From assembly GCA_963514005.1 (NCBI GenBank), contig OY740782.1:136648001-136712000 (forward strand): 64,000 nt of DNA, written 5' to 3'. The notes below the pieces were generated by a model that saw nothing but the letters and a program-made list of their open reading frames with translations, did no database searches and had not been told where the DNA came from. The position numbers and the translations under genes are program-made. The DNA is from Raja brachyura (taxonomy: Eukaryota). Below are positions 11,455 through 56,326 of this stretch, one piece after another; position 1 is the stretch's first letter; every line of letters begins with the position of its first letter.

Positions 11455-12245
11455 GTTCAAGTTCACATTTACTGTCCCATGCACCAATTAAGGTACAGTG
11501 ATATTTGAGTTACCATACAGCCATACAAGTAAAGAGAACCCAATACACAATCAAATTTAACATAAACATCCAACACAGTGGAATCAGCATTCTTCACTGT
11601 GATGGAAGGCAATAAAGTCCAGTCATCTTCCTCTTAAGTTCACTCGTGGTCTTGAACCCTCCACAGTCGCCGCTACAGATGTTCAGGCGGGATGATCGAA
11701 ACTCCATCGTTGGGCTGGATCAAAACACACTCCACGGCTTGGAGTTCCCGAACGGCCGCTTCTTACCGGAGACCGCGGGCGGCTTCACGATGTTAACATC
11801 CACAGGCCCCCGCGGTTGGAGTTCCAACACTGGTAATCCTCGGCAAAGGATCGCAGCTCTGCGATGTTAAAGTCTACGCCGCACCCGCAGCTAGAAGCCC
11901 CGCAGACCGCCACTTCACGATGTTAAAGTCAACAGGAACCTGCGGTCGGAGCTCCTACACTGGCGATCCTCGGCAAAGGATCCCAGGCACCCCGATGGTA
12001 ATTTTACGCTGCGCCTGCTGCTTGAAGCTCCGGACCGCCGGTCTCCAGTCTGGAGAGGCCGCACCAATCCAGTTGTTAGGCCGCGAGGGGGGGAAAATAG
12101 TCACATCTCCGTCGGTTTCTCCCAATCCCCCCCGCCCACCCCCCACATCAAACCTACCGAGAAATATTAAAATATACATTTAGACCCACTAAAAATAACA
12201 AAACACGAGCTGCTAGCGAAGCTGCCGCTCGCAGCACCATCTGGT
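11455..12245 (-). mobile_element. Composite non-coding retroposon, copy 1
   Basis: AGATGG head, T/G-rich block, GC-rich internally repeated middle, TGCCTTCC hairpin at 11568-11612, Rex-like tail ending (gaactt)n. Confidence 0.7.
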
Positions 12246-12769
12246 GGTCATTTAGGTCACACATGGGTATTTTTTGTCTGGTGGTCAGTTCAGTGTCCAG
12301 TAATACTCGGCCGTGGTAGTGTTGAGGTTTGTGATAGTTGCTGCTGTTTCAATACCGTGCCACATTTATAGCACAACTCTCACAACTAAGCATTGGAGAC
12401 GGTGGAGGAGGAGACCAAGAAAAACTATTTTCTATCTCAGCCGATCATGCTCACTTATCTTTTACTGTGGCCTCTGCAGCAGCTACATGACCACACACTG
12501 GTAAGAAAAATGCAAAATAAACATTCCAAACCGGATATATATATATATAAAGCAAAACCCATGATAATGCATGAAAATATCAACTATTCATGTTTGTCTT
12601 TTATTTTACATTAATTCATGCATAGTGTGCACATCAATGCCTGCATGTATTGACCTTCTGGAATTATTCATGCACTGAGGAGCCAGCTCAGTCAGTGATC
12701 ATGTGCAGATCCCACCTCTTTGTTATTCGCTAAATTATGTTCACTATCAGCATACAAATCTGGTGGCAG

Positions 12770-13015
12770 TCAGCATAAGATGGAGGGGAGGTGTTTCTTT
12801 AGACAGAGGATGCTGTATCTGTGCAATTATTTCCCACAGAAGGCTGTGGAGGCAAAATCAGCCCTTTTAAGGCAGAGATAGATTATTAGTATAGAGGTTA
12901 TGGGGAGAAGGCAGGAGAATGGGGTTAGGAGGGAGAGATGGATCAGCCATGATCGAATGGCAGAGTAGAGTTGATGGACCGAATTGCCTAATTCTGCTCC
13001 GAAATCTTATGATCT
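12770..13015 (+). mobile_element. CR1 3' end
   Basis: FPQKAVEA...RGYGEKAG-like sequence plus gatcagccatgatcgaatggc 3' UTR. Confidence 0.85.
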
Positions 13016-13231
13016 TCTTTACATTGAATGCATTCAACTGAGGGGAGAAATGATAAATCGTAAGATGGCAATAAGGGTTTATGGTAAGGTTGAAAGAGGA
13101 GAAGCATCTTTGTAGATCAGTAGAGATCTAGTTGTGCGAAGGATAAGGCACAAGACATAGCCACCATCTTTCAATTCAGTTCCATTATTGGTAACGACCA
13201 ATGTTTGTGACTAATGACAGAACTGGTCACC

Positions 13232-14710
13232 AGGGGGCGCCGCACGATGGCTACCTTGCCAATGCTCTGTCTTAGTCTTTTTCATTCTTTGTGTTTTTAC
13301 TTCGTTGTATGTTTTTACTATGTTTTTATTGCGACGGAATTGCGACATTTTCCTAGTCGTATCTCTGTCTTCACTGCGGCCTAACCTCGTGGAGTTGGCG
13401 GCCTCTTGTTTGGGAATTCTAGAGCTCCAAAACCACGGAGCCTGCGTACTTTAACTTCTTGGGGCAGGCGATCCCTTTGCCAGGCGTTGGCCTTTGATGC
13501 TCCAACATGCGGGTTCAAAGGTTCAAAGGTTATTTTATTGGTCACATACACCAATTGGTGTGGTGAAATGTATCTTGCCAATGCAGCGCATAAAAAAGAT
13601 TACAGACATAACCATAATAAAGAGATTTTAAACAAGAAAAACATCCCCGCACAATGGTTCCCATTATGAGGGAAGGCACAATGTCCAGTCCCCATCCCAT
13701 GTCCACCCATAGTCACGCCCATTGAGGCCTCCGCAATCGCCTTCACGGAGGCCCGATGTTCCAGGCCGTTCTCGCCGGGTGATGGTGCTCCGGCGTTGGG
13801 AGAATCCTCTCAGCGGCTTGGGACACCTGGAACAGCCGCTTCCTTACCGGAGTCCGCGACTTCCGAAGCCAACAAGGCCGCACTGAATGGAGCTCCCCCA
13901 CTGGCTCCCGATGTTGAAGTCAGCGCCGCTGCCAGCAGCTGGCTGTTCCACAGACCCGCAGCTCCGCGATGTTTTTCTCGGCGGTCTCAGCTCACCGGAG
14001 TTCCAGCGCGGCGACCCGGGCAAGGCATCGCCCGCTCTGCAATGGCGCTCCAGCGCTGCGCCGCTGCCGAAGCAGAGGTTTCTGGGTGGTCTCCTCAGGA
14101 AACGCTGCTCCAGGCCCACTGGTAGGCCGCGAGGACGGGTCAAAAGTGCAGCCCGGAGAAAAGCTGCCTCTTCGACCAGGTAGGGACCAGAAAAAGTAGT
14201 TTCCCCCTTCCCCTCCCACACCCCCCCCATAAAAAATAGAACTAAAAAAAAACACTTTAACTCACTAAAAGTAAAGAAAAGAGTGAAAAACAAACAGCTG
14301 CAGGCTGGGCAGCCATACCACACAGGACGGCTCCCCCTAAGGTAATTGCAGACTTTAACATCGTGAAGCTCGGGGTCCCCGGTTAGGGGCCGATTTCGGG
14401 AACTCCAAGTCGCAGGAAATTCGACCATCCCAATGCGGGAGCTTAGACTGCCCCGACATGGGAGCTCGTTCACCGGCAGTGGATGGTTCGACTCCCTTGA
14501 CCACGGGAGGAAAGGAGGAAAGAAGATAAGACCTTATTGCCTTCCGTCACAGTGGGGAATGTGGAGGAGCCACTGTGGTGGGTGTTTATGTCAAATTTTT
14601 ATGTAGTTGTGTATCTTGTTGCTTTTTTAGTATCACTATATGGTAAACCAAATTCTTCGTGTGTTGCAAAACATACTTGGTTAATAAATGACGATTATGA
14701 TTTTTATTAT
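13232..14710 (+). mobile_element. Composite retroposon copy 2 (+), interrupted by copy 3 (-, about 13513-14340)
   Basis: Head ggggcgccgcacgatggc, hairpin at 14538-14585, tail aataaa(tgat)n; nested copy has hairpin at 13641-13680 and a (tttgaacc)n tail. Confidence 0.7.
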
Positions 14711-15389
14711 AGTATGTTTGGGTGATATAGCTATCATGGGTGAGTGACTAGCACTGTGTACAAGCTACAAGGCACAGAGCAATGTTAAGTGCATCTGGAT
14801 GAACTCAGGCAATGAAAGTCAGACACGGGCACTGATTGCTGAGGACTGTCAATAAGTGAACGCTGGAGGTGTGGTAAATTGAGCAGTGCCCAAGGCCAAC
14901 TGCATGGACATGATGTCTGCATTCATTCAACTTGCCTGAACTTCCTTCGTCGCATCATCAGATTTCCTGACACTGACCAGCGTGGTTCCTCCTTTTGGTT
15001 TGATTGAAGATGCCTCGCATATATCCAGTCAAAGCCCATTAATTAAAAGCTACACTCTCTAATCTTGTTTAGATCCTCATCTGCGTCAATCAAATCCTTT
15101 ACAAAAAATACGGTTTTGCTGAATTTTTGCAGGCTTGCTTTCTTTCAAACATGATTTTGTCTGCCTTCAGGGGTAGCCACTTAACTGCACTCTAAGTGAA
15201 GGGTGCAAATCTAGAATCATTTAAAAGAGGCAACATGGTTTCAATTGTTATGTACTGCTGCATAACAAGTTGCTGGATTTTGTTACAGAATGTAAGTAAC
15301 GTCAATGAGTTTGGGCAATGGTCCCGCGCATCATTAAATTGTGCAATTCAATTAAAATTGAAGCAATTGAATGGCTTAACCCCTTGAGA

Positions 15390-15570
15390 TCTCAAAGGCC
15401 TCTTGAGGTCGCTTTCATTGTCAGTGAAGTACTTTTGGATGTAGTCAGATGTTATGTCGAAATTGTGGCAGCAAGAACGTGCTCAGCAGTCTTCCACAAA
15501 CATTTGTGCAATACTGACCAATTTGTTTCAGTGGCATTAGCTGAGAGATAAGCATTAGCCAGGAACATTG
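15390..15570 (-). repeat. Ancient Deu-domain SINE remnant (SacSINE1/AmnSINE-like)
   Basis: gaagtacttttggatgtagtca...gcagc...cagcagtcttccacaaaca...tgacca...tagctgagagataagcattagccagga resembles the DeuSINE consensus as I recall it. Confidence 0.55.
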
Positions 15571-15674
15571 TCTTTATCAAATTAGTGTTCAGACAACTAC
15601 AGATAACTCTCTGACACCTCCTCCTACTTACCCCTGGACCATGACCCCACAGATGAGAATCAGGCCATTATCTC

Positions 15675-15912
15675 AGAGAGCATTCTTTACTCAGAGAGTG
15701 GTAGCGGTGTGGAATGAGCTTCCAGTGGAAGTGGTGGCGGCAGGTTCGTTGGTATCATTTAAAAATAAATTGGATAGGCATATGGATGAGAAGGGTATGG
15801 AGGGTTATGGTACGAGTGCAGGCAGGTGGGACTAAGGGAAAAAAGTTGTTCGGCACGGACTTGAAGGGCCGTGATGGCCTGTTTCCGTGCTGTAATTGTT
15901 ATATGGTTATAT
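15675..15912 (+). mobile_element. CR1 family B 3' end
   Basis: Near-identical to 20460-20690 (FFTQRVVAVWNELPVEVVAAG), (atatggtt)n tail. Confidence 0.95.
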
Positions 15913-16165
15913 TATTACCTCCAGTTGTCTGCCCCCCACTGCTTCCAACCTTATCGAGCCCCAGCCCCGCATGGCTCGGTTTTACCTTCTCCCTAAACTC
16001 CATAAACAGAACGGCTCTGGAAGCCAAGAAAAAGGTTTGAAGAAGGGTCTCAACCTGAAACGTCACCTATACCTCTCTCCAGAAATGATGCCTGACCCGC
16101 TGAGTTACTCCAGCATTTTGAGTCTATCTTCGGTGTAAATCAGCATCTGCAGTTCCTTCCTACAC
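15913..16165 (+). mobile_element. Penelope fragment: RT piece plus terminal unit with hammerhead motif
   Basis: LPPTASNLIEPQPRMARFYLLPKLHK is the PLE RT 'FYLLPKIHK' motif; followed by tgaagaagggtctcaacctgaaacgtc. Confidence 0.85.
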
Positions 16166-16839
16166 TAGTTTGTTGTTTGAAAATGTAGGTGTGGGAACTG
16201 GTTCAATGTCATATGAAGCAGAAAGTATCTCTAGCGCTGTAAGACTCCCTTGTGCATGGCAGTATCAGCCCAAATCTCTTGATCAAGTCTCCAGTTGGGC
16301 TCAGGAGGGGCAGTGCAATAACTGAAACTAGCACAAAATGTAACACCACAAACAGGGAGTCTGCAGGCATTAGACTGAGCCTCAGATACCTCGGTGGGGG
16401 AGAGAGAGAGGAATGCAGAACAGCACTCAAGCATTTGACACAAACACAGCGCCGACAGGTGTGTATGAGCTGGATGGCTGCCCAAGGTCTTGGCCAGGGA
16501 TCTTGCATGCTGCTGAGACAACAGAAGATGAAAGGAGACTATTAAAGAGTCTAAATTAATCCCCAAGCAGTGCACAAAACAGCAATGTTAGACAGCTGGC
16601 CTCTCAATAAAATGATTCAAAACTCAATCCCAGCTATTATTCTGTTTTACCCTCCTCAAGGGAGTACTGATCTAGAGAAGGGGAAGAAAAAGAGTAACAA
16701 CTTGTAGTCTGAGGAAATGGTAAAAGTAGGCTGAAGTCAACAGGAAAGAATATCAATCCCCCATTAATCTTCAGTACTTAAGGGGAACATCTCATTACAT
16801 TGTGTCCTCACAAAGTGGCCTCATCATCATTAATTTTAC

Positions 16840-17130
16840 CGAGTCATAGTGACACAGGAAAAAAAGACCCCTCGGTCCACTGAGTTTGTGCTGCTTATCA
16901 AGCAGCAATTTGTACCAATTTCTATTCCATTCTGGCCACTTTCCAAACCCGACACAGATTCTAGCATTCATCTGCACACTTGGGCTAATTTATAGTGTCC
17001 AATTAACCTACCAAATGCCACATCTTTGAGACATAGGAGGAAACTGGAGCACCCAAAATAAATCCCTGCGGTTACAGGGGGATTGTGAAGCAGCACAGTT
17101 GGTCCAGGGATTGAACCCAAGGTTCTGGAA
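16840..17130 (-). mobile_element. HE1-like V-SINE, degenerate
   Basis: V-domain-like gggtgctccagtttcctcc...caaagatgtg...gtaggttaattgg on the minus strand. Confidence 0.75.
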
Positions 17131-18534
17131 GAGCAGCTGTCACAGAACGCCAGCAATTCAGTTAAGTGATCACTGTAAATTGCCTCTGGTGCAAGTGAGT
17201 TGATGGGGATGAGAGAAGGATAAAAAGGGACTCCTGTAAAATCAGAAATAAATGGCCGATACAAAGTAGAAATGGACTCAATGGAGCAAATGGGTATGTT
17301 TCAATGCCATAAGACCATGAATATAGTGAACCTGAGCTGTGATGAACAGCGTTCCAGATTGGGTCTAACAGAAACTCTAATCAGCTGCAGTGTCCACCCC
17401 TTTATATTTCAGCTACCTCGTGCGAAAGACTAAGTTCCATTAGCTATTCCAATTCTTTCTTGCACCTGTCCATTAGTTTTCAGTGACTTCTCCAGTTGGA
17501 TTTTTGAAACGGTAATATAATTTCTTATTGTGTGGCACTTGGAGAAGATGACTCTTCAAGCCCACCCAGAAAATAATTCTGCATGATTGGATGCACAATC
17601 TACGAGTTAGGATGAAGATGGAGTAACTCAGCAGGTCTGGCAGCAGATCTGGGGAAAGGGAATAGGTGACGTTTCAGGTTGAGACCCTTCTCCACACCAA
17701 CCCTTCTACTAGTTAGGGCTTTGGGTTGTAACTTTTGTTTAGCACATGGGCCAATGTTGGTTCTCAGAAGGTGCAGGCCTCGGCCGCCATCAATGCCGTT
17801 GACAGAAAGAAAGCTGTTAATGTTTAACACAAAAGACTTTGGTAACTAGATTTAGTTTTAGATTTGTTACTGTCATGTGTACTGCGGTACAGTGAAAAGC
17901 TTTTGTTTGTGTGCTGTCCAAACAAATCAGATGATACTGTACAGCAATACAATCAAGCCAAAAACAAGTACAACATGTAGACTGAAGAGAAAGATACAGA
18001 GTGCAGAATATAGTTCTCAGCATTGCAACGTATCAATTCCATAGACAAAGTCCAATGACTACCCCAATGCGGTTGAGATAAAATGGAGGGTATTCTATCT
18101 TATGGAATTACCATTCACAAGCCGGGTAACAGAGGAGAAGAATCTGTTCCTGAATCTGGTGGCAGGTGCATTAACGTTCCAGTGAATAATATAGCAATAG
18201 TGATAAAGGGCTTCATTGAAGTGCATACACAACCTACAGGTGGGAAGTGACTCGTTAATTTTATTTGCTCTATTCAATAAAGCTGCCGTCTCCTTGCAAG
18301 TCCTCCCACAGTTATTTACTGATTCATTGGCAATAAATAAGCTGCACTGACTTTCATGAGAAATTCATATGGCCAATTCATCTTGATATCGTGGATGCAA
18401 GCAGGCCCACATTTTACCTTGTAAATTTTAGAAGCTGGAGAAAATATCTGAATTTTTATTCAAATCCCTTCATGGCCTCACATTCAAATTACAAATCACC
18501 GAGATCCTCATATGCATCCCCAATTTCCATTACT

Positions 18535-18940: not shown

Positions 18941-18994
18941 ATGGTCGCAGTCTACACAAATCAAAGTCAAAGTCAAACAAACTTTATTGTCATT

Positions 18995-25855: not shown

Positions 25856-26074
25856 TTAGTTCTCAAACTCTGGAACATGCTTGGCACCCACCACTCTTGT
25901 GGAGTTGCTAGTATAGTTCGCATGCATCCTTTTTTGTAGGCAATGACTGGTCCTGAGAGTTAACCATAAGCCTCTCCAGTTGCAATCATTGGAAGCTAAA
26001 GTAATTCTCACCTCAACCCAGATTTTAACATACAAGCCTATGCATTTTCCCGAGGTGAATTTCCAATCTGGTTT

Positions 26075-28140
26075 CATTGAATAAATCAGGGAAGGTGGTG
26101 CATCCATGGATAACAAGGGAAATCAGGGATAGTATAAAAACAAAAGATGAGGTATACAAATTTGCCAAAAAAAGCAGCCTACCGGAGGACTGGGAGAAAT
26201 TCAGAATCCAGCAGAGGAGGACAAAGGGCTTAATTAGGAAAGGGAAAATAGATTATGAAAGGAAACTGGCAGGGAACATAAAAACTGACTGCAAAAGTTT
26301 TTATCGATATGTGAAGAGAAAGAGACTAGTTAAAACAAATGTTGGTCCCTTGCAGTCAGAAACAGGTGAATTGATCGTGGGGAACAAGGACATGGCAGAC
26401 CAATTGAATAACTACTTTGGTTCTGTCTTCACTAAGGAAGACATAAATAATCTGCCGGAAATAGCAGTGGAACGGGGGTCAAATAAGATGGAGGAACTGA
26501 GTGAAATCCAGGTTAGCCGGGAGGTGGTGTTGGGTAAATTGAACGGATTGAAGGCCGATAAATCCCCAGGGCCAGATAGTCTGCATCCCAGAGTACTCAA
26601 GGAGGTAGCCACAGAAATAGTGGATGCATTAGTGATAATTTTTCAAAATTCCTTAGATTCTGGAGTAGTTCCTGAGGATTGGAGGATAGCTAATGTAACC
26701 CCACTTTTTAAAAAAGGAGGGAGAGAGAAAGCGGGGAATTACAGACCAGTTAGTCTAACATCGGTAGTGGGGAAACTGCTAGAGTCAGTTATTAAAGATG
26801 GGGTAGCAGCGCATTTGGAAAGTGGTGAAATCATTGGACAAAGTCAGCATGGATTTATGAAAGGTAAATCATGTCTGACAAATATGATAGAATTTTTCGA
26901 GGAGGTAACTAGTAGAGTGGATAAGGGAGAACCAGTGGATGTGTTATATCTAGACTTTCAGAAGGCTTTCGACAAGGTCCCGCATAAGAGATTAGCATAC
27001 AAACTTAAAGCACACGGTATTGGGGGTTCAGTATTGATGTGGATAGAGAACTGGCTAGCAGACAGGAGGCAAAGGGTAGGAGTAAACGGGTCCTTTTCAG
27101 AATGGCAGGCAGTGACTAGTGGGGTAACGCAAGGCTCAGTGCTGGGACCCCAGCTATTTACAATATATATTAATGATTTGGACGAGGGAATTCGATACAA
27201 CATCTCCAAGTTTGCAGATGACACCAAGCTGGAGGGTATAGTTAGGTGTGAGGAGGATGCTTGGAGGCTGCAGGGTGATTTGGATAGGCTGAGTGAATGG
27301 GCAGATGCATGGCAGATGCAGTATAATGTGGATAAATGTGAGGTTATCCACTTTGGTGGCAAAAACATGAGGGTAGACTATTATCTGAATGGTGGCAGAT
27401 TAGGAAAAGGGGAGATGCAACGAGACCTGGGTGTCATGGTACACCAGTCATTGAAAGTAGGCATGCAGGTGCAGCAGGCAGTGAAGAAAGCAAATGGTAT
27501 GTTAGCATTCATAGCGAAAGGATTTGAGTATAGGAGCAGGGAGGTTCTACTGCAGTTGTACAGGGTTTTGGTGAGGCCACACCTGGAGTATTGCATACAG
27601 TTTTGGTCTCCAAATCGGAGGAAAGACATCCTTGCCATAGAGGGGGTACAGAGAAGATTCACCAGACTGATTCCTGGGATGTCAGGACTTTCATATGAGG
27701 AAAGATTGGATAGACTCGGCTTGTACTCGCTGGAATTTAGAAGATTGAGGGGGGATCTTATAGAAACCTACAAAATTCTTAAGGGGTTGGACAAGCTAGA
27801 TGCTGGAAGATTGTTCCCGATGTTGGGGGAGTCCAGAACAAGGGGTCACAGTCTAAGGATAAGGGGGAATTCCTTTAGGACCGAGATGAGGAAAACATTC
27901 TTTACACAGAGAGTGGTGAGTCTCTGGAATTCTCTGCCACAGAAGGTAGTTGAGGCCAGTTCATTGGCTATATTTAAGAGGGTGTTAGATGTGGCACTTG
28001 TGGCTAAAGGGATCAGGGGGTATGGAGAGAAGGCAGGTATGGGATACCGAGTTGGATGATCAGCCATGATCATATTGAATGGCGGTGCAGGCTCGAAGGG
28101 CCGAATGGCCTGCTCTTGCATCTATTTTTCTATGTTTCTA
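26075..28140 (+). mobile_element. CR1 family A, 5'-truncated, uninterrupted 660-aa RT frame (26077..28059)
   Basis: PWIT, KSPGPD, NYRPVSLTS, FADD; (tttctatg)n tail; no endonuclease or ORF1. Confidence 0.98.
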
Positions 28141-29629
28141 TTGAACAAAATAGAATATTACCACAGGGAGAGACAATTTTCTTCTTTGGGCTCTGTAACA
28201 AACCTAATTCTTCAAGATTTTAGTTATCTGCTGCATGGTACTAAATTTAAGAAAGAAATGTTGACTCAACCATCCAATTAACTAACCATCTGAATTGAAA
28301 ACCATTGTCAAATTTGCAAGTTTGGCAATATAACCGTGAACAAAAGACTTGTGATAATTAATGATCTAACAGATCATTGGAAACACTTTGATCAGGTAAA
28401 CGAATGCATCAAATATTTTCATGATATTTTTCGTGGCAACTCTTGGTTAGATTCTAAACCCTTTTAAATCTAAGACTCCTGTACTCTTGTGAAATAACTC
28501 GAATTTATATACTGCATTTTGAAGAATTAGGAAGTTCTAAAACACGATAGACATAGACAGATTTAAATGTAGACAGCACAGTCCCGCTGTGATTAGATCA
28601 ACCAGTTAATCTGTTCTAGCAATGGACAAGCATTGTTTAGAATTACCCAGAATATCCCAGCTATCTCAGTAGTGCCATGGTGTTTTTTCACATTCATTCA
28701 AATTAATGGGTCCTGTTACAGCTATATACAGTCTTGATGCAATGATTCCCGATTAAAACAAGTTGAATTTAACAAATGGCAAGAGTATTTTTTATGATGC
28801 CAATTCCCACAAGATCATCAATTTTATTCCCAAAGCTATGATTGGTGGTGGGCTGCATTTTAGTTCCATATTTCTCAATTTACAAGAAATGTCACTTGAG
28901 GTAAACGTCATTAATAATTTAACAGATGTGATTGGTGCAAACACCAGCTCAGTCTTACACAGCAATTTGTTGAACCAAAACTTGCATCAATACAATATGG
29001 GTCACCGAATCAATCCTTTATGCTGGGAACCAAGCAGATTGCCATGATTTACAACATTTTAAAAAATACTGTAATTCTGACAATGTATTACTCTGCCTGT
29101 GCAGAATGCAATTAACATTCATTGCCTCGCAGCTGGGGCCCAAACCTGGGTTAAGAACTCCTGAGGCTCTATGGCACTATAGTCAATTTTGACTCTAGTC
29201 AATGGTTTGATGTTGGTACCATATTTGTTAGGGTTATGACTTTGACAGATCCACGTACTAACGCAATACAGTATTTAAGTAAGTCTTTATTTCCTGAACA
29301 GCCACATTAATAGATTTATGACCTTTATTCTTTTGGCCATTTCATATCCAAGCCCGACAGATTTAGTCAAATTCATTGGGGCAGCAGCTCCAGTTGCTGC
29401 TTAAATCATGTAACCCTTTCATTGCTAATCCTTTAAGCATGCTATTTAGCATATACTTCTTCTTGACCAAGAAAACCTGCAAACCCCAATACTCATGATG
29501 AATTGAAATACAAAGAGTTCTAAATTCACGAATAATTAGCGATAACTATTTGTATTAATGGTAAAGAAAAGTGTATATTAAATATATTGTAATGTTAGTT
29601 TATGATTTGGTTGCAGTGCATATCCTTAC

Positions 29630-34864: not shown

Positions 34865-36350
34865 TGTAAGGATGAGAGAGGATCTTATAGAAACATATAA
34901 AATTATTAAGGGATTGGACAGGATAGATGCAGGAAAAATGTTCCAGATGTTGGGGGAATCCAGAACCAGGGGCCACAGTTTAAGAATAAGGAGGAAGCCA
35001 TTTAGAACAGAGATGAGGAAACACTTTTTCTCACAGAGAGTGGTGAGTCTGTGGCATTCTCTGCCTCAAGAGGGCAGTGGAGGCAGGTTCTCTGGATGCT
35101 TTCAAGAGAGAGCTTGATAGGGCTCTTAAAAATAGCGGAGTCAGGGGATATGGGGAGAAGGCAGGAACCGGGTACTTATTGGGGATGATCAGCCATGATC
35201 ACATTGAATGGCAGTGCTGGCTCGAAGGGCTGAATGGCCTACTCCTGCACTTATTGTCTATTGAGATGAGGAAAACCCTTTTCACCCAGAGAGTTGTGAA
35301 TCCTTGGAATTCTCTGCTACAGAAGGCAGTGGAGACCAATTCACTGGATGTATTGAAGAGCAAGTTGGATATACCTCTTGGGGCTAATGGAATCAAGGGA
35401 TATGGAGAGAAAGCAGGAACGGAGGGTACTGATTCTGGATGATCAGCCATGATCATATTGAAGGGCCGAATGGCCTACTCCTGCACCTATGTTGGTGAGT
35501 GGGCAAATGTTTGGCAGATGCAGTATAATGTGGATAAATGTGAGGTTATCCACTTTGGTGGCAAAAATAGGAAAACCGACTACTATCTAAATGGTGGCCG
35601 ATTAGGAAAAGGGGAGATGCAGCGCGACCTGGGTGTCATAGTACACCAGTCATTGAAAGTAGGCATGCAGGTACAGCAGGCAGTGAAGAAAGCAAATGGT
35701 ATGTTAGCTTTCATAGCAAAAGGATTTGAGTATAGGAGCAGGGAGGTTCTACTTCAGTTGTATAGGGTCTTGGTGAGGCCACACCTGGAGTATTGCGTAC
35801 AGTTCTGGTCTCCAAATCTGAGGAAGGACATTATTGCCATAGAGGGAGTGCAGCGAAGGTTCACCAGACTGATTCCTGGGATGTCAGGATTGTCTTATGA
35901 AGAAAGACTGCATAGACTCGGTTTATACTCTCTAGAATTTAGGAGATTGAGAGGGGATCTTATAGAAACTTACAAGATTCTTAAGGGGTTGGACAGGCTA
36001 GATGCAGGAAGATTGTTCCCGATGTTGGGGAGGTCCAGGACAAGGGGTCACAGCTTAAGGATAAGGGGGAAATCCTTTAGGACCGAGATGAGAAGGACTT
36101 TTTTCACACAGAGAGTGGTGGGTCTCTGGAACTCTCTGCCACAGAGGGTAGTTGAGACCAGTTCATTGGCTATATTTAAGAGGGAGTTAGATGTGGCCCT
36201 TGTGGCTAAGGGGATCAGAGGGTATGGAGAGAAGGCAGGTACAGGATACTGAGTTGGATGATCAGCCATGATCATATTGAATGGCGGTGCAGGCTGGAAG
36301 GGCCGAATGGCCTACTCCTGCACCTAATTTCTATGTTTCTATGTTTCATG
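34865..36350 (+). mobile_element. Three stacked CR1 3' ends; the last has an open frame at 35449..36252
   Basis: The CR1 C-terminus and 3' UTR recur at about 34865-35260, 35260-35490 and 35490-36350. Confidence 0.93.
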
Positions 36351-42325: not shown

Positions 42326-43947
42326 ACAGAAGTGATCTTCCATTAGAAGATCAAAAGTAGATGTGAATAATGATGATTGTACCATATTTAATTGAATTTG
42401 CAACTCAACAAATTATACAGCCCGAGGCAACAGACAAGGATAGTGGCAAGTAATTAAAACATTATCACAAAATTGTCACCCAATGACATTGTCCAACAAG
42501 AAAGACACTGCTCACCTACATTTGATATTCAACAACTCCATGCTTCCCATCATCCCAAGGGTGCCAATTGACCAGAAAATAGATTGGACCAGCATGAGCA
42601 AGAGAAGGTCAGAAGCTGAAAATCCTGAAGTGCCTGCACCGTGTAATACTCAACTGCTGATATTCAAATCTATGCCATAAATCTGTCATGTGATTTGCAT
42701 CAGTCGTCTGCAATTGAGCAAGTGCAGTTTCAAGTCAAACAGGTCCAGACCACCAAGAATATGAAACCTACTGGAATGGTATTTGCTTCACTCCCCAACA
42801 ACATTAATTCCCTCCATTAGTGGCCACGGCACATACCACCTCCAAAACGCACTGCAGTTACCTATCTCAACTCTCTGGGCAGTACTTTGCAGACATATGG
42901 TAAGACCACGGCAGAAGGAGGACACCACCACCTACAGGTTTCCCTTCCAGATGTCCACCTGTTGACTTTGAAGTACACCAGAAGTGCCTTTGTTGTCGCT
43001 GTGCCTAAATTCTGGAACTCTTTACCCAACAGTAATGTAGAAGTTCCTTCAGCATAAGTACTGCATTGATTCAAGAAGATGACTTACACTTAACTTCTCA
43101 TGGACGTTTATGAATGGGTAATGAAAGGCCTTTTTAGTCACAAATAATTAATTAAAGGGAAAACTGAAGTCTGCTATCCTGTTAATTCCCTTCAGTTAAA
43201 AATGCTTTCTAGGAATAGGATTATACTCTTGGTCCCTTAATTAAATAGACACAATATTGACTATGTATAAACAAACATATACCTAAAATGATGGAGGTGA
43301 TTATTTTACTCGGAAATGTGATTATTACTATTTAACATTTTTTTTAGATAATTATTTTGTTATAAAACTTACCAATGTTAAGTACTCCATTCCGTAAATA
43401 ATAACAACTGAAAGACTTCCATTAAATATTTAACACAATTTGATCTTTCCCCATTCCCCTTTACTGGCACACACATCTATAGAATTAAAAGTCTCATCTT
43501 GACCACTTCCTGTCTATGCTCTATATTGATTTTAGAAAAAACGCTACCCTGTATTGCTGTGATCTTTGGCCATCTTACTCACAGTCCTCCTCCGTTGAGC
43601 CAGCTCTGAGGATTTTTCCCATTGATGAAAAATAAAAAAGTTATGAGTGTTTAAAAAACCTTGAGATCAGGTTATTGATCCTCTCGCCTGTCAATCACCA
43701 TGATGAAAGTAATGCCATTTCCGGGGGGGGGGGGGGGGGGGGTTGAACTATAAAACCACAGATGCCTGAATATCAAATGTCAGTCACTCTGCAAGATCAT
43801 GAGGGAGAGCCCATGATCTGGATCTCAGAAATGAAATTAACTGAAATGACAATGCCATGGGTTGTTTGGCCTGCTGCCCTGCCTGTGCTTAAAATTACAA
43901 TGTTTTATTAGGTCCAACTGTGTTTGGAAGGAATAAATGCTTTATTA

Positions 43948-44420
43948 GCGGCGGCCTGGCTTTCGGGAGCTGTGGTGCTCCAGCGGTGGCCTGGCTTTCG
44001 GGAGCTGCAGTGTTCCAGCGGCGACCTGGGTTTCGGTAGCTGCGGTGCTCCAGCGGCGACCTGGGTTTCGGGAGCTGCGGTGCTCCAGCGGCGACCTGGG
44101 TTTCGGGAGCTGCGGTGCTCCAGCGACGTTCCGGCGGCGGCCCTGTGGCGGTGTTCCGGCGTTCCGGCGTCAGCGGTCTGGATCCCCTCAGCGCAGAGGG
44201 AGAATAAGGAGGGGAGAAAGACAGAGACCCTAAGACTTTTGCCTTCCACCACAGTGAGGAGGTGTTTGGTGAACTCACTGTGGTGGATGTTAATTTTGTG
44301 TTTATTGTATGGTATTGTTATTTTTATATATGTATGACTGCAGGCACGACATTTTGTTCAGACCGAAAGGTCTGAATGACAATAAAGGCATTCAATTCAA
44401 TTCAATTCAATTCAATTCAA
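43948..44420 (+). mobile_element. Composite retroposon copy 4 with 35-bp VNTR
   Basis: Tandem ggcgacctgggtttcgggagctgcggtgctccagc (about 5 units), hairpin at 44240-44290, ttcagaccgaaaggtctgaa stem-loop, (ttcaa)n tail. Confidence 0.8.
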
Positions 44421-44691
44421 TTAGGTCTGACTGTGTTTGGAAGGAATAAATGCTTTATTAGGTCTGACTGTGTTTACTCCAAAAGTCCCGCTCATTTTGT
44501 GACTTCCACTTAGCGGACAGGTCGCGCTGATTGCGCAATTTCCGGTGAGTGCAGTGGATGCGCTGATTGCGTAATTTCTGGTAAGTGCTGAAGTCACTCT
44601 GATTGCAGAAGTTCCGCTGACTGTGGAAGCCCCACAGTGGAGAGGCCATACTCAGCTGTGTGAGTAGATTCAAGAAAGTTTACAGTCATAT

Positions 44692-45278
44692 NNNNNNNNN
44701 NNNNNNNNNNNNNNNNNNNNNNNNNNNNNNNNNNNNNNNNNNNNNNNNNNNNNNNNNNNNNNNNNNNNNNNNNNNNNNNNNNNNNNNNNNNNNNNNNNNN
44801 NNNNNNNNNNNNNNNNNNNNNNNNNNNNNNNNNNNNNNNNNNNNNNNNNNNNNNNNNNNNNNNNNNNNNNNNNNNNNNNNNNNNNNNNNNNNNNNNNNNN
44901 NNNNNNNNNNNNNNNNNNNNNNNNNNNNNNNNNNNNNNNNNNNNNNNNNNNNNNNNNNNNNNNNNNNNNNNNNNNNNNNNNNNNNNNNNNNNNNNNNNNN
45001 NNNNNNNNNNNNNNNNNNNNNNNNNNNNNNNNNNNNNNNNNNNNNNNNNNNNNNNNNNNNNNNNNNNNNNNNNNNNNNNNNNNNNNNNNNNNNNNNNNNN
45101 NNNNNNNNNNNNNNNNNNNNNNNNNNNNNNNNNNNNNNNNNNNNNNNNNNNNNNNNNNNNNNNNNNNNNNNNNNNNNNNNNNNNNNNNNNNNNNNNNNNN
45201 NNNNNNNNNNNNNNNNNNNNNNNNNNNNNNNNNNNNNNNNNNNNNNNNNNNNNNNNNNNNNNNNNNNNNNNNNNNNNN
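44692..45278. other. Assembly gap (N run)
   Basis: Run of n characters. Confidence 1.
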
Positions 45279-49779: not shown

Positions 49780-49831
49780 TTAAAACCAAAAAGCTCTTTA
49801 GTGTGAATTTGTTGGAATTTTAAACCAAATT
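49780..49831 (-). CDS. Internal exon (x)FGLKFQQIHTKELFGF(K)
   Basis: ccctctgtatgtgttcatag acceptor, gtaagt donor, 52 nt, single open frame, phase 1 to 2. Confidence 0.6.
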
Positions 49832-50479: not shown

Positions 50480-53335
50480 CAAAAAGATCTACCACTGGGT
50501 GACCCGATGAAATGGATGCTTTCTATGCTTGCTTCGAGCAGAAGGCCAAACAGGGCGGTGACACCTGGTCCTTCAGACTCCATTGTGCCTCTCCCCAGAG
50601 TGACTGTAGCAGAGATTAGATCAGCCTCCCTGAGAGTAAACTCACAGAAAGCAACTGACCCTGATGGAGTACCTGGCCATGTCCATGGTAGATGCGCGGA
50701 CCAGCTAGCGAGAGTATTCGCAGACATCTCTAATCCCACTCCGTTCTCCGGTACACACCTGCTTCAAGACAACCATCATCCCAGTGCCGAAGAAAACAAA
50801 GACCTCCTGCCAAAATGATTGCCATTCAGAGGCTATGTTTTGAGAGACTAGATGTGGAACTCGTTAAATCCAGTCCACACAGCAACCTTGACCCACTGCA
50901 GTTCGCCTACCACCACAACAGATCTACAGAAGATGCCATCGTCCTAGTCAGACACTCATCCCTGGAACACCTGAACACCCATTGTTTCAGCCTGCTCCTG
51001 TCACACGGGAATGAATTCCACGTACCTCGACTCCATCCTATCCCCACTGGTCCAATCTCTCCCGATCTATGTCCAAGATACCTCACATGCCCTTCGTCTC
51101 TTACATCACTTCTGCTTTCCGAGCCCCACTCCATCACTTTACTATGGATGTTCAGTCATTCTACACCTCCATCCCCCACCAAGATGGCCTTGCAGTCCTC
51201 AGTTTCTTCCTCGACCGCAGAACCATCCAATTTCCCTCTACTCATACTACTCCACCTAGCGGAGCTGACCCTCAACCTCAACAACTTCTCCTTTGACTCC
51301 TCCCACTTCCTCAGTCCAAGGCATAGCTATGGGAACCTGCATGGGCCCCAGCCTCTTTGCCTGCCTCTTTGTAGGGTACGTTGAACATTTCCTGTTCCAG
51401 GCATGCACTGGCCCTATCCCCAAACTCTATCTCCATTACACTGATGACTGCATTGGTGCTACCTCCAGCACCCATGCAGAACTCATGGACCATCAACATC
51501 ACCACCAATATTCATCCTGCACTCAAATTTATTTGGACCATCTCCGACACCTCCCTCCCCTTTCTTGATTTCATAATCTCCATCACAAGAAATAGACTAC
51601 TGACTGACATCTATTACAAACCCACTGACTCCCACAACTATCTCAACTACACTTTTTCCCACCTTGCTTCCTGCAAGGACTATCTCCTGCTCCCAATTCT
51701 TCCGTCTGCGCAGCATCTGCACCCAAGATGAAGTGTTCCATACCAGAACATCCGAGATGTCCTCATTCTTTAGGGAACAGCTCCGCCCTTGCTCCCCCTC
51801 CCCTCAAGTCACAAGAGTGACAGAGTCCCCCAAGTCCTTACCTTCCACCCCATTAGCCGTTGAATACAACCATAATCCTCCAAAATTTCCGTCACCTCCA
51901 ATGGGATCCCACCATTTGTCACATTTCCCCATCTCCACCCCTTTCCGCCTTCCGCAGCGCCCGTTCCCACCGCAACTCCCTGGTTAACTCATCCCTTCCC
52001 ACCCAAACCAAACCCTCCCCGGGTACCTTCCCCTGCAACTGCAGAAGATGCAACACCTGTCACTAGACATCCTCCCTCAACTCTGTCCAGGGACCCGGAC
52101 TGTCCTTTCGGTTTAGGTAGAGGTTCACTTGCACCTCCTCCAACCTCATCTACAGTATCCGTTGTTCAAGATGTGGACCAAACGCAGACTGGGCGATCGT
52201 TTTGATGAACACCTTCGCTCAGCCCGCGTGAACCAATCTAATCTCCTGGTTGCTGGACACTTTAATTCTCCTTCCCATTCCTATACAGACCTTTCTGTCC
52301 TCGGTCGCCTCCATTGTCAGAGTGAGGCTAAATGCAAATTGGAGGAACAGCATCTCATATTTCGCTTGGGCAGCTTACAGCCCAGTGGTATGAATATTGA
52401 TTTATCTCACTACAGGTATCCTTGGCATTCCCTCTCTCTCTATCTCTCCCCCACCCGTAGCACAAGCTTCTAATTTTCACCCTACAAACAGCCTACAATG
52501 GCCTGTTTCCTTTATCATCATTACTTTTTTGCATCTTTCATTCATTGGTCTTTATATCTCCACACCACCGTCTATATCTCTCATTTCCCTTATCCCTAAC
52601 CAGTTTGAAGAAGGGTCTCGATCTGAAATGTCACATATTCCTTCTCTTCAGAGATGCTGCCTGTGCCGCTGAGTTACTCCAGTTTTTTGTGTCTTTCTTC
52701 ACCAAAAACTTCTCCTGGACCACCTGAAAGCACACCAATGCCTCTACTTCCATAGAAGGCTTAAGAAGTTTGGCATGTCCCCTACAACTCTCACCAACTT
52801 CTACAGACGTACCATAGAAAGCATTTTATCAGGATGCAACACAGCTTGGTTTGGGAACAGCTCCATAAAAGACCACAAGAAATTGCAGCAAATTGCGGAT
52901 GCAGCCGAGATCATCACACAAACCAACCTCCCTTCTATTGACTCCATGCTGCCTCGGCAAGGCCAGCAACATAATCAAAAATGAGTCGCACCCTGGCCAC
53001 TCCCTCTTCTCTCTTCTCCCCTCTCCCATCAGGCAAAAGTGTGAAAACGCACATCTCCAGATTCAGGGATAATTTCTTCCCAGCTCTTATCAGGCAACTG
53101 AAGCAACCTATCACAACCAGAGAGCAGTGCAGAACTACTATCTACCTCATTGGTGACCCTCAGACTACCCTTGATCGGACTTTGCTGGTTTTACTTTGCA
53201 CTCAATGTTATTCCCTTATCACGTGTCTATACACTGTAATTGTAGTCATGTTTTGTCTTTATGCTGACTGGTTAGCACGCAACAAAAGCTTTTCATTCTA
53301 CCTCGGTACATGTGACAATAAACTAAACTGATACT
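50480..53335 (+). mobile_element. Decayed Rex1 LINE (50480-50975 and 52700-53335) split by a Penelope insertion
   Basis: KATDPDGVPG...[30 protein letters not shown]; resumes as NFYRRTIESILSGC; tail tgacaataaa(ctaaa)n. Confidence 0.9.
50980..52695 (+). mobile_element. Penelope-like element (decayed RT plus GIY-YIG endonuclease, terminal unit with hammerhead motif)
   Basis: YVQDTSHAL, FTMDVQSFYTSIPH, QGIAMGTCMGPS, YTDD, DIYYKPTDSH, PCNCRRCNTC, CTSSNLIYSIRC, TKRRLGDRFDEH, VAGHFN. Confidence 0.95.
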
Positions 53336-53794
53336 GAGGTGAACAGGTTAAAAGAAATGGAAATCAAACTTTAAAATAAGCATTGGATATTTGACTCTGC
53401 CAAGCATCCCAAAATATCACTAAAATTGTATTCATAAAATGGTAGTGTTCCTGTAAGTTGATCAGCAGGTCCAAAAGATTCACAATATAACCATTATCTC
53501 TTAATCCTTTAAACCTGTTGGCCTACTAATAATGATTAATAATGCTGTGGGTTGATAGCATGCATAATTTTTTCAGTAAGTTATGACCCAATATTTAATG
53601 ATGGCAAAGGATAAGAACATATTGAATTCAATAATGTTTAACAAGCATAAATTAATTAATAGTGCATGTAACTATTAACAGTAATATTATGCAAGTATCT
53701 TGCAAATAATGACCATATAAAATCCGAAATTAGATTTAAGAGGAAGAATGATAAGTAATGGTCTTAAATTTAGGTACAGCAAAGAGATAACAAA

Positions 53795-54172
53795 TAAGTA
53801 AGTAAGTAATTTTTATTTATATAGCACTTTTTAAATCAAATCACGCTGAAGCCAAAGTGCTTTACAGATAAGAAATTAGATTTCCATACATCCATATAAA
53901 AGAAAAAAGAAAAAAAGACACAATATACTTAGGATTCAACATGAAACGTCCCCCCACAGCAGAATCCACTGAGGGAAGGCACCAAAAAGTCCAATCCTCC
54001 TCCTCCTCATAGTCCACCCGAGGTTGGGGCCTATTTGTGGCCTCCTCAGCCAGTCCGATGTTTTCAGGCCCTCTTTGCCGGGAAGCAGGAACTCCAGTGT
54101 CGGGTGAACACTCCTCTGCGGCTTGGAAATGTCTGGAGCGGCCGCTTCCTCCCCGGAGACTGCGGCATTCGA
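53795..54172 (-). mobile_element. Composite retroposon copy 6 (truncated)
   Basis: GC-rich body, gaggag block, shortened tgccttccc hairpin at 53945-53985, tail aaataaaaa(ttac)n. Confidence 0.6.
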
Positions 54173-54659
54173 TACATACATATACGAGAAATAAATACTT
54201 TGGCACATATTCAAAATTGTATTTGGCCGATACACAACTAGTCGTCTCCCAAAAATCAATGGTCACGTAATTTTACAATTCAGGGGCATGAACGTACAAA
54301 ATTTGCTCGAGAAACACATAGGAAAATGGACAGGTAGCAACAATTGTTTCAAAGGGTAGGAGGGGAAAGTTTCGGGGGGTAAAGGCAATAGTGGATTTTG
54401 AAAATCAGGATTAATATTTGCTAATGAGGCGTAATTTATCTGCGAGTCATTGTAGGTCATGGATGACGAGATCTTGGTCATCTGGGACAGCAGGCTTTCA
54501 AACATTCTAAATGTGATGACAGCTGGAAAAGCATCAGAATTATTGAGCTGTAACAAGACTCTGGACAAAGTTTAAGATTTCAGCAATTGATGAATTGAGG
54601 AAAGCAATGCTACATGATATAGTTTTATAAACATACCCCTTTGCTCCTCAGTCTCAGAG

Positions 54660-55370
54660 AACACATCCCTCTTGCAAAGCCATGTTGACTATTGATAATA
54701 AGCCAATTTTTTTCCAAATGAGAGTAAATTCTCGCTCTGAGATCATTTCCTACAATTTCTCGACCACTTGCTCACGGGCCTTTTGCTTCTTGTGTTTTTC
54801 TGACACAACGTTGGCTATTCTCCAGTCTTCTGGGGGTCTTCGCCATGCCATAGATTTCCACCAAGACCCCAGCAATCCTCCTATGTCTCCCTCAGTATCC
54901 TGGAACAGATCAAGCCTCAAAGTCTTATCCTTAATGTTATTTTAACACACCCAACACCGTCTCCTTCTTAATGTTGGTGTTGGCATACTATGGCATAAAT
55001 AGTGAGATATCCTTAATAGCTTTGTTTTGCAAGCTTTTCGGGGGAGATTATACCATACTTGACTGCAATCACACCATACACCAGTACAACATGCAAATGG
55101 ACCAAGAGAGTAGAATGTAGTGTTACAGCTCCTTAATATTAACGTACCATGGCATATAAATATATCTCTGATCTCACCATCTCCCATGTTCTTCATATTG
55201 GTGAATACTGAAGTGAAATACTGATTTAGGACCTCGCCCATTTCCTCTGGGTCCAGGTAAAGATTCACTCCTTTTTCTAAAATGTATCCTCCATTTCCCT
55301 AGTTACCCTGTTACTTTTTATATACATAGAAAATGCCATGGGTTGCACCTAAGAGCCACTTGCCAAGGAG
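54660..55370 (-). mobile_element. Old CR1 fragment with nested insertion
   Basis: EEMGEVLNQYFTSVFT, DWRIANV, SQHGF. Confidence 0.75.
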
Positions 55371-55516
55371 AGAGTCATAGTTTTAGATTCAAGTTTGTTA
55401 TCGTCACGCGTACCGAAGTACAATGAAAGCCTTGTATATCATGATATCCAATCTGCTTAAATAACTCTATACATAGATATAATCAAGTCAAACTCAAGTG
55501 CAATAGGTAGAACAAT

Positions 55517-56326
55517 TGGATTGGATTGGATTGGATTCTTTATTTGTCCTTCAGACCTTTCGGTCTGAACGAAACTCTGTTCCCTGCAGTCATACATATA
55601 ATTAAAAATAAATAAATAAATAATGACAGAACACACAATAAACATCCACCACAGTGAGTTCACCAAACATCTCCTCACTGTGATGGAAGGCAAAAGTCTT
55701 AGAGTCTGTGTCTCTTCCCTCTTCTTTTCCCTCTGCGCCGAGGCGATCCAGGCCTCCGATGCCGCGACCGCCGCTGCCGCCGCCACCGCTGGAACCGCTC
55801 CGGGAGTCGGGCCACCGCCGCCGCTACTGCCGCCGCTGGAACCCCACCGGGAGTCAAGTCGCCGCTGCCGCTACAGCCGCTGAAACCGCCCCGGGAGCTG
55901 GGCCACCGCTGCTGTTGCTGCCGCCGCCGCCGGAACCCCACCGGGAGCCGGGCCACCGCTGCTGCTGCTGCCGCCGCCGCCGCCTGAACCACTCCGGGAG
56001 TCGGGCCGCCGCCGCTGCTGCTGCCGCCGCCGCTGGAACCGGTCCGGGACAGGGGTCGGGTCGCCGCCACTGGAACAGCCCCGGGGCCCGAGGCCGCCAG
56101 CTCTGCCATTAGGCCTCAGCGCAGACGGAGACAGGGGATACAACACAAAAAAAATTGCACCCCCCCCAGAAGGAAGAGACCCGGACATGTTACTCCCCCC
56201 CCACCCACATACACACGCAATCTAACAAAACAAACGAACCCCACTAAGAACAGGACAGAAAAAAATAAAATAAATAACAGACGGACTGCAGGCGGGCCGC
56301 AGCTGTTAAACCAGCGCCGCCATCTT
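55517..56326 (-). mobile_element. Composite retroposon copy 7, apparently full length, with GCN-rich VNTR
   Basis: AAGATGGCGGCG head, T-rich and G-run blocks, tandem (gcggcg/gcagca)...cccgactcccggagtggttcc units, hairpin at 55642-55692, ttcagaccgaaaggtctgaa loop, (aatcc)n tail; sits in a Rex1 tail. Confidence 0.8.

Follow-up and report, generated by a model that had tools for sequence, protein, structure and literature searches.

A Rex1-tailed, gene-less retroposon of Raja brachyura with a conserved hairpin domain that may dock its RNA on 18S rRNA helix 14

The window analyzed here is a single 64-kb stretch of the Raja brachyura genome, for which a first-pass annotation had listed five copies of a hairpin with conserved flanks. 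All five are present at or near the places given, three of them exactly and those listed at 11612 and 13680 with an offset of 1 to 2 nt. A strict form of the hairpin pattern matched four times in the window, compared to an expectation of 0.13, and at least four matches were reached in 0 of 100 shuffles. The features of the window are as follows.

5390..5733, minus strand: 3' end of a Rex1/Babar LINE fragment of candidate helper type, with a tail that fits one tail type of the hairpin element and without the hairpin domain
9040..10318, minus strand: 3' part of a second Rex1/Babar LINE fragment, with a TTTCA..GTGACAATAAA-like tail and without the hairpin domain
11456..12249, minus strand (ends approximate): apparently full-length element with hairpin copy 1; AGATGGTG head at 12235-12242, then a T-rich and G-run module, GCGGCCTAAC at 12075-12084, GC-rich body, hairpin, and Rex1-type tail with TTGAAC repeats
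11566..11611, minus strand: hairpin domain copy 1, TGCCTTCC-stem-loop-GGATGT
13229..13513, plus strand: 5' part of a putative interrupted copy, with a GGGGGCGCCG head and GCGGCCTAAC at 13376
13514..14341, minus strand (ends approximate): apparently full-length element with hairpin copy 2
13641..13678, minus strand: hairpin domain copy 2, short-loop subfamily
14342..14700, plus strand: 3' part of the putative interrupted copy, whose hairpin (14538-14585) is the GGGTGT variant and whose tail is of the CTTGGTTAATAAA type
43947..44421, plus strand: 5'-truncated copy with 35-bp internal repeats, the hairpin, a TTCAGACCGAAAGGTCTGAA terminal stem, TGACAATAAA, and an ATTCA microsatellite
44240..44290, plus strand: hairpin domain copy 4, with flanks complementary to 18S 422-437
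about 53946..53981, minus strand: degenerate sixth hairpin (GGACGT), absent from the first-pass list
55512..56327, minus strand (ends approximate): full-length element with hairpin copy 5; CAAGATGGCG head (AGATGGCG at 56318-56325), GAGGCCTAAT at 56108-56117, 44- to 53-bp GC-rich repeats, hairpin, and Rex1-type tail with ATCCA repeats
55642..55692, minus strand: hairpin domain copy 5

The element at 13514..14341 sits, in opposite orientation, inside another copy of the same superfamily, and the segments on either side of it, 13229..13513 and 14342..14700, would be the two parts of that one interrupted copy.

Genome-wide, the strict pattern gave 28,009 matches versus 58 for the control. The hairpin is an internal domain of a 0.7- to 1.2-kb element without a long conserved reading frame, the longest ATG-initiated frame per element being 40 to 148 aa in 36 copies, and it precedes a 3' tail of the Rex1/Babar type by ∼95 nt, with a fixed spacing of 76 to 108 nt (median, 95 nt; 83 copies) between the domain and the AATAAA of the tail. 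Copies are 5' truncated at scattered points, end in microsatellites, and are young, differing by 1 to 7.5% from the majority of their own cluster (clusters of three or more), and tails and bodies have evidently been shuffled among subfamilies. No consistent target site duplications were seen at the junctions of 24 copies.

None of 34 element heads carried a Pol III B-box-like motif, and searches for a small-RNA-derived head with ARAGORN and Rfam gave no match. A classical SINE with a tRNA, 7SL, 5S, or snRNA head was therefore rejected for lack of a small-RNA head with Pol III boxes. A presumed resemblance of the element to U1 did not lead to a U1-derived head or an origin from stem-loop II, as host U1 is without the motif and the similarity was not above that of shuffles (127/300). 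The first-pass annotation had named a DNA-transposon palindrome among the findings that would speak against it; no DNA-transposon features were found, and a DNA transposon or MITE was rejected given that the hairpin is internal, the G-U pairs favor one strand, and the copies have microsatellite ends. A metagenome scan for the motif returned 16 matches, which we attribute to chance because none has an inverted repeat or a tail. Judged from its sequence, the element appears to be a non-autonomous, Rex1-tailed retroposon that likely depends on Rex1.

All three tail types of the element have counterparts on the 3' ends of Rex1 LINEs, where we found AATTTCGTT-stem-AATGACAATAAA, TTTCACTG..GTGACAATAAA, and ATTCC..CTTGG..AATAAA. 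The hairpin domain was found in the LINE 3' UTR at 0 of 30 PF09004 loci and in 0 of 5 longer Rex1 stretches and is also absent from the 5' ends of both near-full-length Rex1 copies. Since the autonomous Rex1 ends examined are without the domain, we take it to be a feature of the parasite alone, for which ORF2p must be supplied in trans. The sole sequence common to the element head and the two Rex1 5' ends is a short CAAGATGGCG-type word, and neither BLAST nor nhmmer matched the element body and hairpin to the two near-full-length Rex1 copies. The likeness between the element and its candidate helper LINEs is at the level of tail type.

Selection on RNA structure, as the first-pass annotation had proposed, is supported for the element-sense strand: the G-U pairs fall on this strand, pair 3 is A-U in some subfamilies and C-G in others, and in 15 of 15 subfamilies the flanks are fixed. 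The accompanying description of stem changes as largely compensatory was overstated, for compensation and G-U pairs are present and most of the variation is one-sided (G-U). In an alignment of 19 copies, pairing holds for 94.9% of stem cells; two-sided change occurs in 3 of 13 stem pairs, and the covariation score of 0.254 compares with an average of 0.166 in shuffles and no more than 0.075 in slid registers, the relatedness of the copies inflating these measures. The number of pairs with two-sided change was itself not above shuffles, 123 of 500 of which reach it. Pairs were read from per-cluster folds, in which the stem is 13 to 15 bp long, because bulged subfamilies confound a fixed-register pair table, and we left out a chance match (L020), a duplicate of L026 (L030), two false pattern hits, and one cluster of two opposite-strand artifacts. 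A lower stem (GAC/GUU-like) that looked plausible by eye was rejected, its own pairings being no better than swapped ones (146/300), and an IRE was rejected by inspection, since CAGUG lies in the stem and covaries.

A stable stem with invariant flanking nucleotides could also belong to a self-cleaving ribozyme or a microRNA precursor, in line with the processing site suggested in the first-pass annotation. We found no support for either and regard this reading as highly improbable. Rfam at gathering score gave no matches in the window, and at eight further loci it gave weak matches elsewhere and none credible at the domain, so the search that the first-pass annotation had proposed points to no known family that fits. 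The hammerhead core (CTGANGA) lies near only 7 of 116 copies, inspection revealed neither a catalytic C after the stem nor a nested pseudoknot, and cutting 100 nt before the tail would remove the body of the element. A stem of 13 to 15 bp is, moreover, short for Drosha.

Across 15 multi-copy subfamilies (77 copies, many of them originally found by the motif itself), neighboring sequence is only 56 to 60% identical and GCCTTCC and GGATGT are invariant. All 13 of the 13 flank columns are fixed, compared with 3 of the 72 upstream columns, 11 of the 123 downstream columns, and 10 of the 34 columns that make up the inner stem and loop. A sample chosen by the tail, without selection on the flanks, reached the domain in 26 of 30 loci, with GGATGT in 25 and CCTTCC in 25. 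When copies were chosen by the inner stem, 73 of 100 among the matches listed had an intact GCCTTCC and 75 an intact GGATGT (counted by eye), with no rival majority letter at the flank positions. The invariant core is GCCTTCC...GGATGT; of the TGCCTT earlier described as invariant, the GCCTT part holds, and the first T is A or C in some subfamilies genome-wide. Of 100 copies listed, 8 have G in place of the last T of GGATGT, and 46 of 49 groups retain the T directly after this motif. Sequence conservation is high in the inner stem too, at 74% identity with 10 invariant columns, and the loop varies freely in length and sequence. The flanks are able to pair together as an irregular helix composed of UCC/GGA, a U-U mismatch, and C-G.

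The evident shuffling of tails and bodies among subfamilies and the youth of the copies (1 to 7.5% from the cluster majority) would be expected if the module were under no special selection and had recently spread among subfamilies by recombination or gene conversion. We consider this very unlikely, since the loop varies freely and the stem pairs change in concert with both flanks fixed, and a recent sweep would have homogenized the loop too.

Read together, the two hairpin flanks match positions 422-437 of host 18S rRNA, in helix 14, as an exact reverse complement over 13 to 14 nt, with the hairpin opposite two unpaired adenines and a 2-nt gap in the split complement. This complementarity and the Rex1-tailed host element are observations beyond the first-pass annotation. 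The exact split complement occurs once in host 18S and nowhere else on either strand of the 9.5-kb pre-rRNA, and six control motif pairs from the element gave no matches. The chance of such a match in shuffles is 1e-4 for 14 nt in 18S, 4e-4 to 2.5e-3 for 13 nt when 18S or the sense pre-rRNA is searched, and as high as 2.3e-2 under the loosest terms (13 nt, both strands, gap to 60); because the match was noticed first and tested afterwards, rRNA understates the real search space. Naked-RNA cofolding with 18S gave −11.7 to −16.4 kcal/mol for six of six subfamily representatives, and in all six 0 to 1 of 451 18S windows was better than the 422-437 site, a calculation that leaves out ribosomal proteins and the tertiary packing of helix 14 and in which the top rank follows from the match itself. 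The boundaries of conservation and complementarity are not identical: the conserved T after GGATGT would mismatch 18S, and the first T of the flank would pair with 18S yet varies (T, C, or A). As separate observations, pairing with 18S leaves the conservation of the inner-stem sequence unexplained, and the irregular flank-to-flank helix would compete with rRNA binding.

A 13/14 split match is also found in the coding strand of one Rex1 family, which indicates that near matches do arise. It lies, with a 48-nt gap, in the region coding for the ORF2 C terminus, and another Rex1 family shows a separate weak antisense profile match (E = 0.016), so that the flanks might instead pair with Rex1 mRNA and tether the element to the transcript of its helper. 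This is the least probable of the explanations that we weighed, as the site occurs in 6 of 35 Rex1 loci, all of one family, and a match with such a long gap and a mismatch is expected by chance (estimated at ∼0.06 for two families).

Host U14 snoRNAs carry the same antisense letters, CCTTCC-TT-GGATGT, and domain B of U14 is reported to pair with helix 14 (PMC10783500). The domain could therefore have arisen by rearrangement of a U14 snoRNA or from a piece of antisense rRNA, in a snoRTE-like manner, and have been kept for folding, stability, or nucleolar binding of pre-18S instead of docking on ribosomes engaged in translation; one host U14 starts with TCACTGTGATG, which is identical to the 3' arm of some subfamilies, and local alignment was above shuffles for two of five U14 copies (0/150 and 2/150). 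We nevertheless judge this descent improbable. Box D follows GGATGT in 0 of 116 copies, the profile match to U14 has an E value of 1.4 with no SNORD14 match in Rfam, the 18S match of the element is 1 to 2 letters longer than in any of the five U14 copies, and U14 would have to be circularly permuted. A U14-like box C/D snoRNA was rejected on the same absence of box D (CUGA) after the antisense element, and a box H/ACA snoRNA or snoRTE was rejected because the unpaired target is AA and not UN, the ACA or H box expected about 14 nt downstream (ACA or ANANNA) being present in 15 of 116 copies.

Our tentative preference is for ribosome docking, in which the flanks of this Rex1-tailed, gene-less retroposon are predicted to base-pair with helix 14 and so hold its RNA on ribosomes to capture Rex1 ORF2p. 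The element would probably be transcribed from an internal Pol II-type head; (U)GCCUUCC would then pair with 18S 430-437 and GGAUGU with 18S 422-427, placing the inner stem opposite the unpaired adenines 428-429 in a three-way junction. RNA held in this way could capture newly made Rex1 ORF2 protein, which would mobilize the element via its tail. The Alu domain with SRP9/14 is reported to contact h5, h14, and h15 (PMC8137916), ribosome association is described as the current model of ORF2p capture by Alu (bioRxiv 10.1101/2024.12.16.628748), and in-cell crosslinks between SINE B2 RNA and the h14/h15 region have been reported (PMC10881587). We are somewhat more doubtful about the specific form of docking, namely, that the superfamily evolved a two-part antisense guide holding helix 14 through a three-way junction, so that the RNA is placed in the region that Alu reaches via SRP9/14 and Rex1 ORF2p is captured cotranslationally, a protein-free, convergent route to trans-mobilization.

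Nearly as likely as docking is that the domain is a protein-binding irregular helix under a stable stem, recognized by Rex1 ORF2p or by a host export or stability factor, and that the 18S match is due to chance; a protein-binding site was among the functions suggested in the first-pass annotation. LINE and SINE tails commonly contain stem-loops by which LINE proteins are recruited, and such a helix would accommodate the conservation of the inner-stem sequence and of the T after GGATGT, the ability of the flanks to pair together, and the fixed distance of 76 to 108 nt from the tail AATAAA. On the other hand, the autonomous Rex1 ends examined are without the domain, so ORF2p does not need it, and a 13- to 14-nt match to a functionally fitting rRNA site is left to chance, at 1e-4 to 2e-2.

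A conserved middle domain across families with different tails is known from platypus snoRTE and the SINE central domains (CORE, V, Deu, and Ceph), from which the element, compared by description, differs in having neither H/ACA boxes nor a tRNA head. Like Alu and further SINEs of 7SL origin as described, it is a non-coding retroposon carrying a structured domain that is small and strongly conserved (bioRxiv 10.1101/2024.12.16.628748; PMC8137916), and placement on the ribosome for ORF2p capture has been proposed there too, via SRP9/14. Unlike Alu, it has no 7SL homology or Rfam match, a Rex1/Babar-like helper and not L1, a microsatellite tail and not poly(A), and an internal domain near the 3' end, and its contact with the ribosome, as far as complementarity suggests, would be direct base pairing and not a protein bridge. 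Bipartite ORF-less non-autonomous LINEs (derivatives of RTE, Ingi, Vingi, and R2; Kojima 2018, PMC5786205) share with the element the lack of an ORF and of a tRNA head, a LINE-type tail, and probably a Pol II-type head. In that paper, the sources listed are RTE, Ingi, Vingi, and R2 only and "Rex" does not occur; the element also differs in that its body and hairpin are without similarity to the two near-full-length Rex1 copies.

U14/SNORD14 domain B, according to PMC10783500, presents the same antisense letters against 18S helix 14, whereas in the element the guide is split by a hairpin, box D and snoRNP features are absent, and there are tens of thousands of mobile copies. For SINE B2 and FRAM in SINEUP RNAs, crosslinking of SINE RNA to the 18S h14/h15 region in cells is reported (PMC10881587); unlike in the element, the pairing there is short and discontinuous with few reads and was studied for translation enhancement and not mobility, and the available portion of that source reports no invariant 13-nt guide.

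According to the Alu minimal-domain preprint, the access of SINEs without 7SL descent to LINE ORF2p "requires elucidation" (bioRxiv 10.1101/2024.12.16.628748). We found no description of a Rex1-tailed superfamily with such a domain in the open-access literature, and a related family could be listed among the SINE tables of PMC5786205. The invariant 13-nt guide and its named rRNA target make docking testable by simple and compensatory mutation. Should docking prove false, what still stands is a large, non-autonomous, Rex1-tailed superfamily whose structured domain is conserved. If true, docking would add a novel mode of ribosome engagement by a selfish RNA, convergent with Alu in the region used, and the compact module might raise the trans-retrotransposition of engineered RNAs.

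All five hairpins that the first-pass annotation had read in the window are present, at positions that agree within 1-2 nt:

44240-44290, plus strand, hairpin
55642-55692, minus strand, hairpin
14538-14585, plus strand, hairpin
11566-11611, minus strand, hairpin
13641-13678, minus strand, hairpin

A sixth, degenerate hairpin lies near 53946-53981 (minus). The strict hairpin pattern gave 4 matches in the window against 0.13 expected, and 28,009 in the 2.7-Gb genome, where the reversed control pattern had 58. Repeat types point to a cartilaginous fish as the likely host.

The hairpin is carried by an element with full-length copies of ∼0.7-1.2 kb, whose ATG-ORFs span just 40-148 aa and whose copies are frequently 5' truncated. 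A U-rich stretch, a terminal stem, AATAAA and then usually a microsatellite follow the hairpin in every window copy and in 29 of the initial 30 loci, the one left out of this count being a chance pattern match. AATAAA was found in 83 of 116 copies, and in these it lies 76-108 nt from the hairpin (median 95). On its upstream side the hairpin has a purine-rich stretch, a GC-rich body that contains internal tandem repeats, and a 5' module. This module consists of a head, for instance GGGGGCGCC or CAAGATGGCG, together with a T-rich stretch, a G run, a small hairpin of the GGAGA..TCTCC type and GCGGCCTA. This second conserved module is common to all subfamilies; examples are the following:

window 56100-56327, 5' module
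window 14120-14341, 5' module

A U1 origin of the module was rejected. No B box was found in 34 element heads and no tRNA gene in the element, and the Rfam search proposed in the first-pass annotation was run and matched no family. Within window 13229-14700, a copy (13514-14341, minus) sits inside another of opposite orientation, and similar clustering or nesting occurs at loci L028, L094 and L096. Near-identical copies at L071, L072, L074, L107 and L108 (G000:C1:2.57-3.27 Mb) and at L026/L030 have flanks in common and therefore represent segmental or tandem duplications, not separate insertions.

Other features were also observed in the window. Another LINE, which has long reading frames and which we take from its tail sequence to be CR1-like, is present as young copies (90-99% alike) at 26059-28141, 35443-36343, 61333-62794 and 1995-3442, and a different repeat at ∼61100-61250 (minus) has a head that is presumably tRNA derived, in the SINE pattern, and was not called by ARAGORN. 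Long inverted repeats at 57196-57368 and at L005:2823-2917 consist of a common short repeat whose copies stand back to back, yielding Rfam miRNA matches below threshold. A 587-base N run (44692-45278), 270 bp past the 44240 copy, is a source of spurious ORFs.

LINEs bearing PF09004 are abundant in the genome, and two near-full-length copies each hold a single endonuclease/reverse-transcriptase frame of ∼1,000 aa; from their PF09004 domain we assign these LINEs to Rex1/Babar. Rex1 tails have the same form as element tails, with LINE counterparts for all three element tail types, which suggests that Rex1 may mobilise the element. The hairpin domain was not found in the 3' UTRs of 30 PF09004 loci (2-3 of them shortened by truncation), in the further Rex1 3' ends examined or at the 5' ends of two long Rex1 copies, so the domain is the parasite's and not the helper's. 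At L061 (G000:C2:68959000-68966000), a full-length element and an intact Rex1 frame of 1,013 codons face each other head to head across a gap of ∼75 bp, probably through independent insertion.

To compare subfamilies, 118 copies were grouped into 55 clusters, and 15 multi-copy clusters (77 copies) were kept after removal of one artefact cluster. Across their majority sequences, all columns of both flanks are invariant (GCCTTCC, 7/7; GGATGT, 6/6), compared with 10/34 in the inner stem and loop (74% identity), 3/72 upstream of the domain (56% pairwise identity) and 11/123 downstream (60%). The invariance claimed earlier for TGCCTT thus holds from the G onward but not for the first T, which is T, C or A by subfamily; where it is C, the resulting C-G decays to CA or TG. 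Because many copies had been found with the flank motif, three samples were drawn independently of it. Selection by tail reached the domain in 26 of 30 loci, with GGATGT in 25, CCTTCC in 25 and GCCTTCC in 23. Selection by 5' module reached it in 28 of 30, including 2 with internal deletions; 5 were near-identical duplicates. Among the first 100 of 7,439 inner-stem matches, counted by eye, GCCTTCC was intact in 73 and GGATGT in 75, a change of ∼4% per site, which is what decay after insertion would produce; in 8 of these 100, GGATGT has G for its last T. Sequencing-run contigs from five other organisms also cover the domain, and among the rows listed they carry no flank substitution at a 15% threshold and only G-to-A at the first G at 3%.

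The compensatory stem changes proposed in the first-pass annotation fared unevenly. Pair 3 changes from A-U to C-G, pair 9 from G-C through G-U to A-U and pair 12 from A-U to G-C between subfamilies, and 94.9% of stem cells pair in 19 aligned copies. In these copies none of 500 shuffles and no slid register reached the covariation score, but 123 of 500 shuffles reached the number of pairs changed on both sides; relatedness inflates tests of this kind.

The likeness of the flanks to an 18S complement was noticed first and then checked, post hoc, on the host's own rRNA. Host 18S 422-437 reads ACATCC-AA-GGAAGGCA; its reverse complement matches TGCCTTCC and GGATGT letter for letter, and in the predicted flank pairing its two unpaired adenines fall opposite the hairpin. 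No second split site of this kind occurs on either strand of the 9.5 kb that span 18S to 28S, and 0 of 6 control motif pairs had a site. Chance estimates and cofolding are listed below.

Chance of the split match and cofolding with host 18S
Letter shuffle, 14 nt in 18S: 1.0-1.3e-4
Letter shuffle, 13 nt in 18S: 4e-4 to 6e-4
Letter shuffle, 13 nt in sense pre-rRNA: 1.3-2.5e-3
Letter shuffle, both strands and gaps to 60: 2.0-2.3e-2
Null allowing for self-complementary base, gaps to 10: 3e-4 to 3.6e-3
Cofolding of six subfamily representatives with 18S 418-441 (naked RNA): -11.7 to -16.4 kcal/mol, three-way junction predicted in 5/6
18S windows cofolding better: 0-1 of 451, a rank due to the sequence match itself

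Five host U14 snoRNAs hold the antisense in contiguous form, (C)CTTCCTTGGATGTCTGA:

L140-L144, G000:C18 and C26, five U14/SNORD14 copies in two clusters

In passages of PMC10783500 the partner of U14 domain B is helix 14, which identifies the 18S site as helix 14. The hairpin domain could be a relic of U14 or of another antisense with a different role, and in some hairpin subfamilies the 3' arm is identical to the first 11 letters of one U14 copy; likeness beyond domain B is weak (E=1.4; scores exceed shuffles for 2 of 5 U14 copies), and we consider this origin unlikely.

We tentatively favour, from the sequence match, the possibility that the element docks on ribosomes by pairing of its flanks with helix 14. 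Current models, as put in parts of bioRxiv 10.1101/2024.12.16.628748, have Alu RNA bind SRP9/14, go to ribosomes and take ORF2p, with the route of other SINEs left open there. Passages of PMC8137916 place SRP9/14 in contact with 18S h5, h14 and h15, and those of PMC10881587 report SINE B2 RNA crosslinked in cells to the h14/h15 region, with few reads; the portion seen of PMC4357698 holds nothing further on helix 14. Whereas Alu gets to this region through SRP9/14, the element would reach it by direct base pairing; its domain keeps a distance of ∼95 nt to the tail, to which ORF2p has to bind. Against docking, the match was found post hoc, one pairing position (the first T) varies, mature subunits may leave helix 14 inaccessible, and a 13-of-14 split match, its halves 48 nt apart, also occurs in one Rex1 family (6 of 35 loci). 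Conservation moreover extends to the inner stem and to one flanking T, neither of which pairs with 18S, and the flanks are able to close on each other, as might suit a protein-binding helix, an account of the domain that we hold to be nearly as probable as docking; the remaining readings are very improbable.

As sources of bipartite ORF-less LINE derivatives, the available parts of Kojima 2018 (PMC5786205) name only RTE, Ingi, Vingi and R2, with Rex unmentioned. Searches of the open-access literature turned up neither this family nor any retroposon said to carry an rRNA guide; the family may be catalogued in Repbase, Dfam or subscription journals. Docking by pairing, if confirmed, would be a new mechanism.
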